Positions 10,969-55,944 of a stretch of DNA of 64,000 nt are shown one piece after another. The notes under the pieces were generated by a model, which saw nothing but the letters and a program-made list of their open reading frames with translations, ran no database searches and had not been told where the DNA came from. Every line of letters begins with the position of its first letter. Position 1 is the stretch's first letter. The DNA is from Octopus vulgaris (Eukaryota): the NCBI GenBank assembly GCA_951406725.2, contig OX597828.1, forward strand, positions 20,584,001-20,648,000, written 5' to 3'. The translations under genes were made by a program, and so were the position numbers.

Positions 10969-12267
10969 CATACATACATACATACATACATACAAACATA
11001 CATAGATGTAATTTATCAATGTAAGGTAATAAGTATCGATCTAGTACATAATTACATATGACTTTACCTCCAACCAAATTTTTAGTTACACCCATACATT
11101 TAAGAACCACGTCTTTATCTAAATTTATATGGGATTTGAAAAGTAAAACTTTCACTTGTAACTTACAATGACATTTAGTGTCTGAAGTCAGTTAATTCAC
11201 GGAAAATAAAGTAGTCTGCAATTTATGTGCAATTGAAATCTGCATACTACTCTCTCTCTCTCTCTCTCTTTATCGGTCTCTCTTTCTCCCTCGATCCCTC
11301 TTTCTCTCCTTTGCTTCTGGGAGAAATTCAGGGCCAATAAAAGTGGCAACAGTAATTCAACGTAAGTCGTGGCAGATCTTTCTTGCTTTCTTTTTCTTTG
11401 AGCTGATTCCCATAATAGCATTTTAGGAATTTATTACTTCGCTGTGAGTATCCACTACATTTCAACCTCAGTATATTTACAGTCTCAGTTATCTTAGGAA
11501 TATTACCGTGTAGTTGCTACTTTATTTGATGTGTTTTTCTATGACATTTTCCTTGCTGTTCTGAGAACCAGAAGTATAGTCCATCTAGACGTTTATCCTA
11601 ACAGAGTGATTTAATAAGGGTCCAGCATTGTGCTCGTAGAGAATTTTCTTTTCGTGGACATAACAGTTTTGAAACTTATTTAAACTATAAACTTGAAGCT
11701 CAACCACAAAGATAAATTTTGTCTGCAAATTCATTGTGGATTATAACAATTATGTATTTTAAGTATCTCTCGGACCTCTAATTCTTTCCTTTCTCTGCAG
11801 TCTGCTTCCGTTGGCCCATTAAACCTCTTCACGATACGCTCAAACTTGGCGATACTCCAGATATTCGCTAAATATGCTATACAGTTAGTTATTTGCCGTA
11901 TAATCAGAATAAAAACGATAATATTTAACAGAATAATTGAAACAACTTATCTCCAACCCATAAACTATTAAAGCATTTTTATAGTAATGCTTACTGTAAT
12001 TTACATAGTATGCAAGTGTATGTATGGGCCTGTGTCTGTGTATGTGCAGATACCTGTGTATGTGAGTGTGTGTTCGTAAGTATGTGCGCGTGTGTTTGTG
12101 TGGGTGTCTGTATGAGCAAATGTGTGTGCACATGTGTCTGTGTATGTGAATATGCAGACTAGTATATGAGTGTATGTGTGTGTATGTGTGCGTCTGCATG
12201 CGCGTATATATATATACATATGTGTGTGTGTGTGTATATATATATATGTATACAGGCATACACATAT

Positions 12268-23419: not shown

Positions 23420-24400
23420 GGTGCTGGTGCACCATCGCCTCAATACCCAAGATATCAGCTTTCCTCAGGACCTGTATGTCTGGATTGAATTTTTAAGGTC
23501 CAACCAACATTCAGAATGTGTCTCAGACATTTCTGATGAAAGCGTTCAAAGACCCTTACATGATGTCTCATATGAGTCACGGAGCGATGTCAGTACACAT
23601 GCACAGTGCACAGCAATTTTTGTTTCCCTTTTGATGCTATGCTGGGACCAGACACGAGACTGAAGAGAACAGACTGAAACAGTTCATCTCTGCAGCCTGA
23701 AATATATTTCATCGTCCAGAGAGTAAGAACGGCTGCGTGTGCTGCCCAGGTAAGCAAACTTGTCTATCAGTTTCAGTATTATTCCTTCAACCAAGATAGT
23801 TGGTTCCACATATGAATTTCCTGGTGCAGGCTAGAACATTACAACAGTCTTGTCCAGGCTAATGCTGAGTCCAAATGCCTTGCAAGAAACAGAAATATGA
23901 TTCATAAGTATTTGCATGTCATCCACTGTATGAGTGACTAAGTCATAGTCATCTGCATAAAGAAGGTCAGGAATAAGAGACTGGAAAACGTTTGATTTGG
24001 CAGAAAATTGGCGCAGATTAAAGAGACGGCCAGAAGAGCAATACGTAACATATATTCCCAGAGAGATAAATTTAGCAAAAGAATGAGTAAAAGCAGCAGC
24101 AAAGTACGAAGGAAAGAGAGTTGGAGTAAGGATGCCACCCTGCTTGACACCATTCTCTACAGGAATGGCTACCGCTATACCTCCACCAACATTGACCCAA
24201 GCCTCCATCCCATCATGAAATGATTTAATCATAGATAGAGTGATCCAGACATCCAAGTTGGTCAACTATTTTCCATAGCAAGGCCCTATTCACAGTTTCA
24301 AAGGCCTTGGTTAAATCAATGAACACCTCGACAAGATCCATATTTTACTCATAACACTTCTGCATGTCTTGCTGTGAAAATCTTATCCATTGTCCATCTA
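23420..24400 (-). pseudogene. RTE-clade LINE reverse transcriptase fragment
   Basis: ORF 23831..24265 has GVKQGGILTPTLF, DLLYADD and FGLSISLDKT RT motifs; upstream VFIDLTKAFETVN; frameshifted. Confidence 0.9.
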
Positions 24401-33284: not shown

Positions 33285-33620
<336 letters not shown>

Positions 33621-33684
33621 TCGGGGTGAGTACTTGATAATTATAAGCACCTGTGTATACCGTTTGGTGGTGTAGGTGGTGGAG

Positions 33685-34787
33685 TAAATTGATCAAAATA
33701 AAAATAAAAACATGAGGCGAAGGATTCAGCGGTACATATGTTTCGGGCCTTTATTAGACAGATTTATAACAAAGCATAATGTATGTCTGTGGCCTTCTTC
33801 AGCCGCGCACAACAGCTTCCACAAGGACATGTGTTACATCAAAAATTCTTGGTTGGGGATGCAAATCCTCTCGTTCACGTACGACATAATGCGGCAGCAG
33901 CATAGAATTGAAGCGTCCATCTCTTTCTTCTCTCAATGTAGAATGAGGAAACTTGGATGTTGAGGTAATGTAAATAAATAAATACGTATATAGAGGTGAA
34001 GATGGAGGGGCGAGAGTTCGGGACGAGGGATAAAAAATATATATAAAAAATGTACGTATAGAATAATATAAAAATGTAGAGGATAAAGATATAAAGAGTT
34101 GTAAGGAGATGTAAAGGGGGTGTAAAGAAATATAAAGAAATATAAATAAATGTAAAGGCATAAGGTTGTAAAGTAAAAATAGAGATGGAAATAATAGTAA
34201 AAGAAGTGAAAGAACCTGATAAAAACATGATAAAAGTGTAAAAGAATGTAAAGATAAGGGATGTATAGAGGTCGCGGACCAAGCATGGTGGTCAGGAGAT
34301 TGATAAAACTTAGTTGTAGAACTGTCAGTAAATTAACAGTTTCGTCGTAAATCAGAGCTGATGAGAATTTAATCTGGTTCCTTGAATTAAATGGACTTCC
34401 AGTACATACATATCATCATGGGTACATACACCCACATACACGCGTACATATACGTCTCCAAGCCTATAAGCATACACACGCACTCGCGTGTAAACACGTA
34501 CATAAACACACACGCACCCACACGCACGCGCGCACACACACATACATACAACAGAATATCCGCATATATAGACGGACATTACGCGCGTACACGCTCACAT
34601 GTATATACGCGCGCCCCTCACTACATACACACACGTATATGCCCACGCCTCTAGGTCTAGGTATAAGATATTAAAGGATGTGTATAAGAACGTATGTAAA
34701 GAATCCCGTACTCATGTTAATACGCGCACGCACACACGGCTGTGTGTCCGTATGTGCGTGCACATATACACCCATATACACACACAG
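33685..34787. repeat. Left arm of ~1.1-kb inverted repeat
   Basis: Reverse complement of 36027-37127; mirrored ORFs in the track (33712..33963+ equals 36849..37100-, and others). Confidence 0.97.
33729..33806 (-). ncRNA. Type-I hammerhead ribozyme (sense to the element)
   Basis: GCGG-CUGAAGA-AGGCC..stem II..GGCCC-GAAAC AUAU GU-A-CCGC; palindromic ACAUAUGU stem III. Confidence 0.8.
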
Positions 34788-35446
34788 AGACACACGCGCA
34801 CATGGGTATAGCCATAAGATATCGAAGTATGCATGTACATATACGCGCGTGCGCATGTATGTATGCGCATACACACGTACGCGGACGCTCGCATACTCAA
34901 AAGGCGGATCCATAGGTAAGTAAATAAACATATATAGAGGTGTAAAGCGATAAATTAGGGGTAAGAATGAGGGTAAGGGTAAAGATTAGAAATAAAAAAT
35001 ACAGTATAAAATAAGAAATACAATGTAATAGTTAGAAATGAAATATAAGAATTATAAGGGTTATAAGAGTTAAGGTAAGGGATGAAAATGAAAATGAGAG
35101 TAAATGGAAGTAGAATAAAAGTAAAAATAAAATTAAAAATAAAAATAAAAATAAATGGAAGTAGGATAAAAGTAAAAATAAAAATAAAAATAAAAATAAA
35201 AATAAAATAAAATAAAATAAAAAAATAAGGTAAAAATATAATTTTGTAAAGTTTAACATGAGATGGAGGTGGCACACATATATATATATATGTATATGTA
35301 CACATACGTACACGTATGTGCACATACACACGCACACACACACACACACACACACATACACACGCACATATAGGAAAGCGGGATGTGCTGGAGCCGACAG
35401 GTTGCACCGGGTGGGAGGAAATAGCATGGGGGAGTTGGTATAAGAC

Positions 35447-36026
35447 CTAAGCATTGTAGTATTTGAAAGTATTAATAAGTTTATGTATACAGGATGGTTT
35501 GAACTCTGACCTTTTGTTAATAAGATTGTGTTTGTCTTTGAATTTCAAGATGTTCAGGAGTTCTACACAGCATAGTTGGCATCCTGCTCTATTATTTAAA
35601 TAAGGTGCAGCTGATCCGATGATGGACCATCTGAGTTTGAAGCCTATGCATTTGTCTTTTAATTCCCAAATTCTTTTAGAGAGGGAGGTGCTGTTAGCCT
35701 TATGTCTATGTCTCAGCGAGGACCGGTGGTTGTAGTATCTGGATTTCCAGGAGGTTGAGCAACCAATATAGGTGAGTGTGTTAAACTGAGTACTCACCTC
35801 ACATGAGTATATTACGTTTTTCGCCCTGCATGCGCCCTGCAGCGGGCACTCTGATGCACATCTGCAGTTGCATTGCATTGCATTATTCGGTCGTGTGCTG
35901 CTAATCCCAGGCGGAGGTGTTGCAATACGAGTGGGGGCGTTGGTATCCTCCTGGTTGTTGATGGGTGTAGTATTTCCTCTGTTGTGTTGGCGGGTGTTAT
36001 TACTAACTGCTTGGGTAGTATGGTAG
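35447..36026 (-). CDS. GIY-YIG endonuclease domain (C-terminal part of the Penelope-like ORF; RT domain lost)
   Basis: ORF 35447..36136: CNCRCASECPLQGAC linker, NVIY..TYIG, SRYYNH, CQLCCVE, INKRSE, CIH; no internal stops; the first ~36 codons come from the inverted arm. Confidence 0.88.
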
Positions 36027-37125
36027 CTGTGTGTGTATATGGGTGTATATGTGCACGCACATACGGACACACAGCCGTGTGTGCGTGCGCGTATTAACAT
36101 GAGTACGGGATTCTTTACATACGTTCTTATACACATCCTTTAATATCTTATACCTAGACCTAGAGGCGTGGGCATATACGTGTGTGTATGTAGTGAGGAG
36201 CGCGCGTATATACATGTGAGCGCATACGCGCGTAATGTCCGTCTATATATGCGGATATTCTGTTGTATGTATGTGTGTGTGCGCGCGTGTGTGGGTGCGT
36301 GTGTGTTTATGTACGTGTTTACACGCGAGTGCGTGTGTATGCTTATAGGCTTGGAGACGTATATGTACGCGTGTATGTGGGTGTATGTACCCATGATGAT
36401 ATGTATGTACTGGAAGTCCATTTAATTCAAGGAACCAGATTAAATTCTCATCAGCTCTGATTTACGACGAAACTGTTAATTTACTGACAGTTCTACAACT
36501 AAGTTTTATCAATCTCCTGACCACCATGCTTGGTCCGCGACCTCTATACATCCCTTATCTTTACATTCTTTTACACTTTTATCATGTTTTTATCAGGTTC
36601 TTTCACTTCTTTTACTATTATTTCCATCTCTATTTTTACTTTACAACCTTATGCCTTTACATTTATTTATATTTCTTTATATTTCTTTACACCCCCTTTA
36701 CATCTCCTTACAACTCTTTATATCTTTATCCTCTACATTTTTATATTATTCTATACGTACATTTTTTATATATATTTTTTATCCCTCGTCCCGAACTCTC
36801 GCCCCTCCATCTTCACCTCTATATACGTATTTATTTATTTACATTACCTCAACATCCAAGTTTCCTCATTCTACATTGAGAGAAGAAAGAGATGGACGCT
36901 TCAATTCTATGCTGCTGCCGCATTATGTCGTACGTGAACGAGAGGATTTGCATCCCCAACCAAGAATTTTTGATGTAACACATGTCCTTGTGGAAGCTGT
37001 TGTGCGCGGCTGAAGAAGGCCACAGACATACATTATGCTTTGTTATAAATCTGTCTAATAAAGGCCCGAAACATATGTACCGCTGAATCCTTCGCCTCAT
37101 GTTTTTATTTTTATTTTGATCAATT

Positions 37126-37127
<2 letters not shown>
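36027..37127. repeat. Right arm of ~1.1-kb inverted repeat
   Basis: Mirror of 33685-34787 with one 2-nt indel and a few substitutions noticed by eye. Confidence 0.97.
37006..37083 (+). ncRNA. Type-I hammerhead ribozyme (mirror copy)
   Basis: GCGG 37006-37009, CTGAAGA 37010-37016, GAAAC 37068-37072, GTA 37077-37079 (predicted cleavage after 37079), CCGC 37080-37083. Confidence 0.8.
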
Positions 37128-37184
<57 letters not shown>

Positions 37185-39361: not shown

Positions 39362-40371
39362 TAGGCGTTGGACAAAATAATGGAAACACCTAGCATCATA
39401 GCATCATAGCATCATAAGTTTGAAATATCTATAAAACCATCAGCAGCTTGATTATTTTCATGTTTTTTTTATTTATTATTATTGTTGCTAGAATTTTGCT
39501 AAAATTGTAGATATCATCAAAAAAAAAAGGTCAGTAAAGTTCATTAAAATGACAGATCTATCGGACTTTAAAAGAGGTCAAATTGTTGGCGCTCGTAAGC
39601 TGTTCGCCGGGAGCTGCATAAAGCCAGATTTCACGGGCTGCAATCAGAAAACCACTCCTTTCAAAAACAAACGTTGCAAAGCGTTTAGAGTGGAATAAGA
39701 ACCTACAGAATTGGTCCCTATAGCAGTGAAAGAATGTTATTTTCTCGGACGAGTCATCCTTCACCATATTTCCAACCATCAGATGAGTATACATGTGGAG
39801 ACAGCCAAAAGAAGCATTTGACCCAGACTCCTTTCATCCAACTGTTAAACATGGATTAGGATCTGTGATAATCGGGGGGGGGGGGGGTGCTATATCTTGG
39901 AAATTCGCCTGCCCAATGATTTCCTTTCATGGCAGAATTAACAGTCAAGACTATTTAAGCATTTTATCTGATCAAATTCACCCTATGGTTGCGGAACTGT
40001 TTCCGAAGGGAAATGCAATCGTTCAAGATGATAATGCACCAATTCACAGCTAAAGCTGTTATTGAATGGCACGAGGATCGTTCTCGTGAAATTGAACATC
40101 TTATCTGGCCACCACAGCCCCCAGATCTCAATATTATTGACTATTTATTGTGCATTTTAGAAACACAAGTAAGGAGTCCATATCCTCCACCATCATCACT
40201 GGAGACTGTTTTAGCTGAAGAATGGACAAAATGTTTTTTTGGGGGGGAAACAATTCAAACTTTGTCCATACCGCGTAGAATTCAAGATGTAATTACTGCC
40301 AAAAGCTGTCCTACCTCATATTAAAATAAATTTGTTTAAAATTTTAAGGTGTTTCCATTATTTTGTCCAAC

Positions 40372-46209: not shown

Positions 46210-46265
46210 CTCTGCTGAAGAAGGAAATATCCGTTGCATTACTTTCGAAATCGATCGATACAGAG
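46210..46265 (+). ncRNA. Minimal type-I hammerhead ribozyme
   Basis: CUCUG-CUGAAGA-imperfect stem II-GAAA UCGAUCGA U-A-CAGAG; stem I 5 bp, palindromic AUCGAUCGAU stem III; lies in a ~460-bp cassette between (TA)n runs. Confidence 0.7.
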
Positions 46266-46411
46266 ATAACGCATTAAAAAAAAAAATTCTGTTAGCTTGC
46301 TTTCCCCAATTCAACACGATGTGTATTTATAGTGATGTATATTGTATGTGGTGATTTAAGGTCGTTTTCTCAGCGCATTGGCATAGAATTTTTTTCTTTT
46401 ACACTTATTTA

Positions 46412-47669: not shown

Positions 47670-49210
47670 GTTAATGCCTTTGCACAGCTTCAAACGCTGG
47701 AGATGTATTAAAGTGTCAGCTGTTCACTATCAGTGAACTAAGGTAACACCTCTTAATTTTCGAGCACTTTCCGGAGTATTCGAGCGGTTCCAAGCAGTGC
47801 TGTTTTCTGCAAGTGCTCCAACCTTATTCCCAGGGCTCCGACTATTATTGGTACCACTGCTACCTTTTTCATAGACCACAACTGCTTAACTTCCAAAGCT
47901 AACCTCTCATATCTATCGACTTGTTGTCAGCTGGGCATGCTATATCTATGATCTAGTATGGTTTGTTTTCTTTCTCAATTAAGACTATGTCTGGCTTCCT
48001 ATTCCCTATCTCATGGTAGCACTGAATCATTAAATCCCACAGGATCTTTGCATTTCCATTTTCGGCGATGCCTTCAGGTTTGTGGTCGTACCAAGTTTTT
48101 GCTCTGTCATGTCCATACTTGTTGCAAAGTGTTCAATGAACAAGTCTGGCTATATTACCGTGGCGTCTCTTATATTCCTTCGGGGCTAGTGGTGTACATT
48201 AGCTGGTAATATGTCATACGGTTCCACTATTTTGTCCACAGATTCTGCACTTATCACTTTCTGTTGTGTTGTCTACTCTGTATTTTATATCATTTTTAGT
48301 GCTTGTAATTCTTAGTGCTTGCTCTTGGGTAGCACAGATTAGAGCTTACGTTTCCGGTTTTAAATCACTTTTAGTCATGCACAGTCATCTCTTTTCTCTG
48401 TCTGTCTTATCTTCAACATCCCTATGCAATTGAACCTGCATTCTTTTCTTTACCCACCTATTTTCAGTTTTATTCGTTTTCAATTTCTTGTATAGTGCTT
48501 TATCTTTGCAATCTTTCATCCTATACAAGCGTGACCTTCTTACTTCTAATCATAGCAGTTCTGTGGCATATTTACATACCATGCTATGTTGTTTTCTTCT
48601 GTTCTAATGCTGTGTTCATATCCAATAAGTCCTCTTCCCACTCTTTTTCTTAGTACATACAGTCTGTCTGTGTCACTTTTGGGTGGAGTGACCCATATCT
48701 AGATAGCAACTTCCTTGTCTTTCTATCTAAGCTGTTTAGTTCATCTACTGTCTATGCGATTACCCCTGCTCCTTATTAAGGAGTGAAACTGCCCAAGTGT
48801 TGATAGCTTCAGTCTTATTCCGTCCGTTTAATTTCGACTTGAGGATCAGTCTCAGTCTGCGCAAATACTCCACCCTAAATTGTTCTGTTATTTCTTACTC
48901 CATCAATTTATCCATTTCCAAAATCCCCAAGTACTTATAGCCCGTCTCTTCTATCTGCTTCATAATCCCCACCGACGGTATCTTTAGCCCGTCCATACAT
49001 TTGATTTTGCCTCTCTTCAAGACTAACACACCACACTTTCTCAGTCCGAACTCCATTCTGATATCAGCACTGAAGGTATACACCGTATCAACGAGGGAAC
49101 TGACTTGGGCTTCATCTTTACCATAAAGTTTGAGGTCATCCATGAATAACAAATGGTTGACTTTTTGTTGGTGGCTTTTGAATACATACCCAGCCTTTGC
49201 TTTCCTTAGT
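47670..49210 (-). pseudogene. R4/Dong-clade non-LTR retrotransposon 3' half (RT, CCHC knuckle, restriction-like endonuclease)
   Basis: LFMDDLKLY..MEFGLRKC..YKYLGILE (ORF 48895..49152); hand translation CRICGQ..HITS.C..EYKRRH and KPDIVLI..IIDIACP..VPIIVGALG; 3' end abuts (TAA)n; many stops. Confidence 0.85.
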
Positions 49211-55834: not shown

Positions 55835-55882
55835 GTCTCTGATGAAGTGATATCTATAATATCCCAGAAACAGTTGTAAGAC
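55835..55882 (+). ncRNA. Minimal type-I hammerhead ribozyme
   Basis: GUCU-CUGAUGA-AGUGAUAU CUAUA AUAUCCCA-GAAAC AGUU GU-A-AGAC; in a ~265-bp cassette between (TG)n and (TA)n. Confidence 0.68.
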
Positions 55883-55944
55883 TATATCTCATCCTTATAA
55901 AAGTCCTGAAAACTCCTCACAGCCTTGGCTTTGTTATGTTGTTG

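Follow-up and report, generated by a model that had tools for sequence, protein, structure and literature searches.

The locus and its fold-back element

Between positions 33616 and 37127 of the window (the whole 64,000-nucleotide stretch of DNA that was analysed) lies an element that forms a near-perfect palindrome of ~3.5 kb and whose sense strand is the minus strand. It is bordered by two target-site microsatellites to which no strand is assigned, (TA)14 on the left (33588..33615) and (TA)27 on the right (37129..37182). From left to right, the element comprises: an unpaired 3′ tail of 69 nt, present at one end only (33616..33684, minus strand); arm 1 (33685..34787, minus strand), which the arm alignment and contigs across 34787/34788 define as the native 3′ end of the element, a pseudo-LTR (pLTR); the simple-repeat-rich remainder of a non-coding 3′ region of 1831 nt (34788..35446, minus strand); and the C-terminal part of a 5′-truncated Penelope-like element (PLE) open reading frame (35447..36023, minus strand). 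The frame encodes an N/T/P-rich linker, a CxCX5C motif (35846-35872, minus strand), a GIY-YIG core (35762-35815, minus strand), CxxC-E and N-CxH motifs and a stop. There follow a fold-back junction of 3 nt (36024..36026), absent from the arm and from the longer copies listed, and arm 2 (36027..37127, plus strand), which by the arm alignment is an inverted copy of the 3′ end without the tail. Compared by eye, the last 3 nt of the arm are the same as the 3 nt preceding the break in the longer copies listed.

Alignment of 33685-34787 with the reverse complement of 36027-37127 gave 1098 matches, three substitutions (34590, 34591 and 34615) and one 2-nt indel (34523-34524), i.e. 99.5% identity, and the outer 838 nt of the two arms are identical. 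This bears out the near-identical inverted arms of the initial annotation, which had also given a spacer of ~1.24 kb, a tail of ~70 nt at one end and (TA)n at both; the spacer measures 1239 nt, and the tail and TA runs are as listed above. All of the arm differences cluster within 93 nt (34523-34615; p about 0.02), possibly as a patch from a sibling copy. Because (TA)n lies on both flanks, a target-site duplication is unreadable; outside the TA runs the flanks are unrelated to one another.

Other features were recorded elsewhere in the window. The same (TA)n array holds, in the same orientation, what remains of a fold-back from another family (33386-33587, minus strand; ~200 nt). It has perfect 46-nt arms (33477-33522 and 33538-33583), a 15-nt loop, a 91-nt tail and a hammerhead motif (33490-33527); the core of this motif is CCGAUGA, and by eye its helix I and helix III arms match those listed for Hydra-2_aMil. 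An isolated type I hammerhead motif whose 10-nt helix III strand is palindromic (46211-46274, plus strand) likely belongs to the 3′ end of a PLE family distinct from these two, and a weaker hammerhead-like motif ~70 nt from (TA)n (55836-55883, plus strand) failed the filter for a palindromic helix III. A decayed Hydra-type nuclease fragment with stop codons is found at 11106-11240 (plus strand; 36% identity over 45 aa, E=5e-5). Decayed transposons are represented by fragments at 23834-24265 (minus strand), 48898-49209 (minus strand) and 39959-40321 (plus strand), two of them RVT_1, one of which is above the Pfam cut-off, and one a weak DDE_3. No host gene was found by Pfam on 109 of the 111 window ORFs, a scan that left aside the ORF of the element and a single mirrored ORF from the arm, and in which the RVT_1 fragment was the sole match above cut-off.

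A predicted GIY-YIG nuclease

The minus-strand frame is open over 35450-36139, its initial stretch being inverted arm, and is predicted by structure modelling to fold as a GIY-YIG nuclease. The alignment-based model (101 sequences) reached a pLDDT of 93.1; a single-sequence model (pLDDT 38.8) was unusable. The top three structural matches of the model were I-TevI (Z 9.1, rmsd 2.4, 90 aligned), T4 EndoII (Z 7.2) and the UvrC GIY-YIG domain (Z 6.2). Foldseek ranked the same families first, but not significantly (E>=0.14). The VIY..YIG, R, H, E and N residues are conserved in the element nuclease. An uninterrupted GIY-YIG domain in the spacer, as previously proposed, thus agrees both with the open frame and with the fold.

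The profile search that had been suggested as a check gave a divided answer. The Pfam GIY-YIG match on the element ORF (E=0.97) was below cut-off, but phmmer with the last 143 residues as the query retrieved 4501 proteins at E<=0.001, of which 1472 reached E<=1e-10; identity was 44-47% for the best relatives. Pfam on 17 relatives returned sub-threshold matches only, and a profile search of PDB sequences with the nuclease returned none. Among 10 phmmer matches looked up, one was named, a hypothetical protein of Argonauta hians with 34% identity. All four of the phmmer matches of at least 600 aa have an RT-type YxDD upstream of the C-terminal endonuclease (EN), and RW[KQ] and DK[TS] are present in 3/4 of these.

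Assignment to the Hydra clade

The Hydra clade is marked, according to Craig et al. 2021 (PMC8557442), by a C-terminal EN, a CxCX5C linker that replaces CX2-5CxxC, and no CCHH motif. In addition, CxxC and CxH surround the conserved E and N, the RT carries RWK and DKT, insertions target (TA)n, and hammerheads occur at the 3′ end. In the protein of the element ORF (P0001), residues 52-60 form the CxCX5C linker, CCHH is absent, and CxxC-E and N-CxH are present. The EN is at the C-terminus: there is a stop after it, and the frame extends upstream in other copies. Every EN feature of Hydra is therefore found in P0001, and neither of the two that mark Neptune. The (TA)n insertion and the 3′ hammerhead motif also agree with Hydra, the helix II insert being longer. 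The GIY-YIG endonuclease, and the inverted pLTR with its one-sided tail and hammerhead motif, are those of EN+ PLEs. Since this copy has no RT, the clade rests on EN motifs and not on an RT tree, and by these motifs we class the element as a Hydra-clade PLE.

The motifs were also counted in 151 proteins, consisting of the query and its 150 best matches. CxCX5C occurs in 104, CxxC-x2-E in 137 and N-CxH in 126, whilst of the 122 proteins with a scorable YIG, none has the linker of Neptune or a CC pair ahead of YIG. The initial annotation had assigned the element to the Neptune group, to which a Cys-rich linker ahead of a C-terminal GIY-YIG, a microsatellite target and a hammerhead could all point. 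We have withdrawn that assignment and regard a Neptune-clade element as having next to no probability: the CX2-5CxxC linker of Neptune and Nematis is absent, there is one Cys between GIY and YIG where the CCHH finger needs two, and the linker instead matches the CNCR-x-CPL pattern of the Hydra rows in the PMC8557442 alignment. Naiad was also rejected; its N-terminal EN, CX2-5CxxC, CCHH and lack of a canonical hammerhead do not describe this element.

Hammerhead motifs and the predicted fold of a transcript

Using our own descriptor, we found one predicted type I hammerhead motif per arm, in agreement with the initial annotation: the first at 33729..33806 (minus strand; predicted cut after 33733) and its mirror at 37006..37083 (plus strand; predicted cut after 37079). 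The motif has a 4-bp helix I, a CUGAAGA core, an A.C mismatch at 10.1/11.1 (the base of helix II), a 4-bp helix II with a 41-nt insert, and a self-complementary helix III strand of 8 nt. Measured inwards, the predicted cut is 48 nt from the end of the arm and 117 nt from the end of the tail. The descriptor had four matches in the window versus a mean of 0.015 (maximum 1) in 200 shuffles, a comparison that favours the real window because the descriptor was hand-written after the motifs were seen. Rfam gave 51 weak matches, all below the gathering score and none of them a hammerhead; metagenome and viral contigs contained no match to a 26-nt hammerhead motif. Folded freely, the hammerhead region and the tail did no better than shuffles (z -0.3 to 0.9), and the free fold of the motif does not take the hammerhead shape. 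Separately, 34320-34370 and its mirror in arm 2 contain the two halves of a hammerhead core on opposite strands, which may be left over from an earlier fold-back that the long 3′ region captured.

Hammerheads of PLEs, including nearby pairs on opposite strands, were described by Cervera and de la Pena 2014 (PMC4209133), who report that the minimal motifs show no cleavage as monomers and weak cleavage as dimers, so that dimers are needed. Hammerhead cleavage was dispensable for insertion in vitro (Frangieh et al. 2024, PMC11167929). The earlier suggestion for the present element was that a transcript could be trimmed by its hammerhead into a long hairpin RNA. The geometry of this idea stands. 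In the predicted fold, 1098 of the 1101 arm bases are paired, giving a 1.1-kb duplex. The trimming is unlikely because, in the folded plus-strand transcript, 78/78 hammerhead bases have a predicted partner in the opposite arm; the duplex is worth -147 kcal/mol, and the hammerhead fold of the monomer -9.5 kcal/mol. In such a transcript, the antisense arm would be made before the hammerhead. The hammerheads are likely passengers in this copy.

The duplex that a read-through transcript would form could also be taken to indicate that the locus is a functional gene for a hairpin RNA or for an RNA processed by its ribozyme, or that it belongs to a non-autonomous family, fixed in palindromic form and mobile as one unit. 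Against these readings, the hammerhead is completely buried in the duplex, contigs of 3/4 runs enter coding sequence, and not arm, at 36023, and the breakpoint of the only other inversion joint listed is a different one. We give these readings very little weight.

The family in public sequencing runs

The family is highly abundant in public sequencing runs, where it occurs at high depth. Of the 24 runs listed, 20 (nine studies, three organisms) contain part of the stretch, each at most 0.70 of its words, and no RNA run was listed among those containing it. Four runs (X1 to X4) were compared with the element over 33616-36110, using contigs only, and the species of the window may differ from organisms A and B. 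Depth over 33700-33951 was 9-21x that over the nuclease in three DNA runs, as summed contig depth rather than copy number; this gradient fits what is expected from 5′ truncation. The 3′ region at 34788..35446 was covered in 3/3 DNA runs except for 35128-35295, which lies within a skipped repeat stretch. Contigs of X2, X3 and X4 cross 34787/34788, and arm 1 is therefore the normal continuation of the spacer. In the tail, bin depth fell to 0.19-0.62 of the next bin in 3/3 DNA runs. Run X2 (guessed to be RNA; one run, contigs only) had almost no cover over 33616-33783, an observation to which we give no weight.

At the other end, loose ends were seen at 36023 in X1, X4 and X2 (3/4 runs, among the 24 rows listed of 298). 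Past this point the frame stays open for 30 nt in the longer copies, and the three differences between runs are all synonymous (both by eye). Because the longer copies continue in frame beyond 36023, this copy is 5′-truncated in the linker and has no reverse transcriptase. The earlier description of a 5′-truncated Penelope-like copy carrying an inverted copy of its 3′ part is thus supported by the anatomy and by the longer copies. An opposite-strand joint at 33893/33960 in X4 belongs to another copy with its own breakpoint, showing that fold-backs recur with other breakpoints.

A recent insertion, with an active source element, had also been proposed. The first part probably holds: judged from the 99.5% arm identity, the intact frame and a 960-nt contig of run X2 that differs from the window at 3/650 nt, the copy appears young. 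The active source was not recovered, as no full-length copy was found; word-indexed protein searches gave 0/183 longer candidates at E<=1e-10 and 0/11 near-length candidates at E<=1e-5.

Copy-specific alleles

At 15 or more sites (among the 40 rows listed of 55), the window differs from at least 84% of the depth in all three DNA runs. Ten of these 15 sites are in the arm and 10/10 of the alleles are common to both arms, indicating that the arms come from one source. The 15 near-fixed sites listed over 33616-36026 include 13 copy-specific transitions, of which 11 are towards G/C (11 versus 2), eight of them A-to-G on the cDNA strand. The skew has p=0.011 against 50:50, but p=0.07 once base composition is allowed for, and the transitions show no significant strand bias (p=0.25). 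The G/C-ward skew is therefore suggestive only. Its use as evidence for an editing signature was rejected, since the count used 38 of the 40 rows, with two second alleles dropped, and 15 more rows were unlisted.

Formation of the inverted arm

We consider it very probable that the element is a 5′-truncated Hydra-clade PLE copy in (TA)n whose inverted arm arose, likely, during insertion. Having no reverse transcriptase, it would be unable to move on its own. A full-length element elsewhere would have supplied the RT-EN protein, and the nuclease would have nicked both strands of the TA array. The first nick would have primed a cDNA at the outer start site, which ran for ~2.4 kb and stopped in the RT-EN linker; the second would have primed another cDNA 69 nt further in, of 1.1 kb; and the two cDNA ends would then have joined head to head over ~3 nt. 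This twin-priming route for the inverted arm is the one that we lean towards, by a modest degree. With a Poseidon PLE in vitro, both target strands are extended, and there are two start sites whose distance equals the tail (PMC11167929). The drop in tail-bin depth would fit two start sites here also, albeit that Poseidon is a different clade.

A rather less probable route is snap-back, in which the truncated cDNA would have folded over at 34787, so that copying ran back in the direction of its start. Arkhipova et al. 2013 (PMC3846280) suggested self-priming of this kind for the inverted junctions of PLEs, and both the private alleles shared by the arms and the 3-nt match at the junction are what it would produce, although snap-back and twin priming explain these two observations equally well. 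What snap-back alone gives no reason for is an arm that stops 69 nt short, near the depth drop of the family; the three extra nt at the junction also count against it. Later rearrangement, or some other route, seems improbable to us. Less probable still, and by some way, is that the structure is an assembly or library fold-back artefact. A long near-perfect palindrome is open to that suspicion, and no contig spanning the 36023-36027 junction was present among the 32 listed of 9129 pieces. However, an artefact is unlikely because the arms differ at three places and end at element-specific positions, and because the flanks beyond the TA runs are mutually unrelated; in addition, the one-sided tail and layout match published PLE insertions, and a second, tiny fold-back of like layout lies next door. 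Published work, PMC11167929 included, treats the origin of PLE inverted ends as unsettled.

Implications

A single insertion matters little, and the main use of this one is in annotation. Hydra-clade elements fall below Pfam and Rfam thresholds and are easily mislabelled as Neptune; only 27 Hydra families appear in the 2021 listing (PMC8557442), yet public runs contain the family of this element in abundance. Genome data alone could serve to test twin priming versus snap-back in a high-copy family that is young and whose fold-back junctions vary. If transcribed, the 1.1-kb palindrome would yield double-stranded RNA.

A broader reading, which we think improbable, is that the element represents a very abundant, unlisted, long-tailed Hydra subgroup, characterised by a 3′ region of 1.8 kb and an enlarged hammerhead helix II, and that the terminal 250-330 nt of this subgroup have dispersed independently as a non-autonomous element with a hammerhead. 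Its fold-backs would be traces of twin priming from a pair of fixed start sites separated by 69 nt, and the transition skew (11 versus 2) would reflect either wobble errors of the RT or A-to-I editing that retrotransposition had fixed. If true, the subgroup would be a natural test set for the formation of PLE inverted ends.

Comparison with known systems

A search of the literature, with Repbase, Dfam and the O. vulgaris repeat library outside its scope, found no published description of this family. The family may already be catalogued in repeat libraries; the O. vulgaris repeat library paper (PMC13282606) gives 31 recently active Penelope-like families. Hydra-1_Obim of Octopus bimaculoides (PMC8557442) is alike in clade, target and cephalopod host, but by eye it differs clearly in the EN linker, GIY-YIG core and hammerhead arms and is annotated without a pLTR. 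Non-LTR retrozymes share a type I hammerhead with a palindromic helix III; they were rejected as a match, as they are protein-free head-to-tail repeats whereas the element is inverted and carries EN coding sequence.

More distant PLEs share parts of the architecture. Pen1 and Pen2a of Adineta vaga (PMC3846280) have an inverted pLTR, an optional tail and an N-rich RT-EN insert, and Pen1 has, like the element, a long spacer (0.9-1.5 kb) before its 3′ pLTR. These belong to a different family group, however, and the Pen1 spacers are unique to each copy, whereas the 3′ region of the element has family-level depth. The PAc Poseidon of Anolis (PMC11167929) resembles the element in its tail, hammerhead and AT-rich target, but is of the Poseidon clade and has a hammerhead that overlaps the ORF start; inverted arms are not described in the available portion of that paper.

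The closest likeness is to the Hydra families of PMC8557442, with which the element has in common the C-terminal GIY-YIG, CxCX5C, the lack of CCHH, CxxC/CxH, (TA)n and 3′ hammerhead. The A.C mismatch at 10.1/11.1 resembles that of many Hydra motifs in the same source, whilst the 41-nt helix II insert contrasts with loops of 3-10 nt in 26 Hydra hammerhead rows. Published tails measure 30-40 bp, about half the 69 nt found here. With 1831 nt of 3′ region after the stop and relatives of ~700 aa, we infer a full length of ~4 kb, compared with 1080-3045 bp for the 27 Hydra families listed. The anatomy itself (inverted end, short tail and hammerhead motifs) has already been described, and the element is at most a new family: Penelope-13_HM, of the Hydra clade (PMC8557442), is laid out in the same way, with an inverted copy of 966 nt at its 5′ end and one hammerhead per strand.
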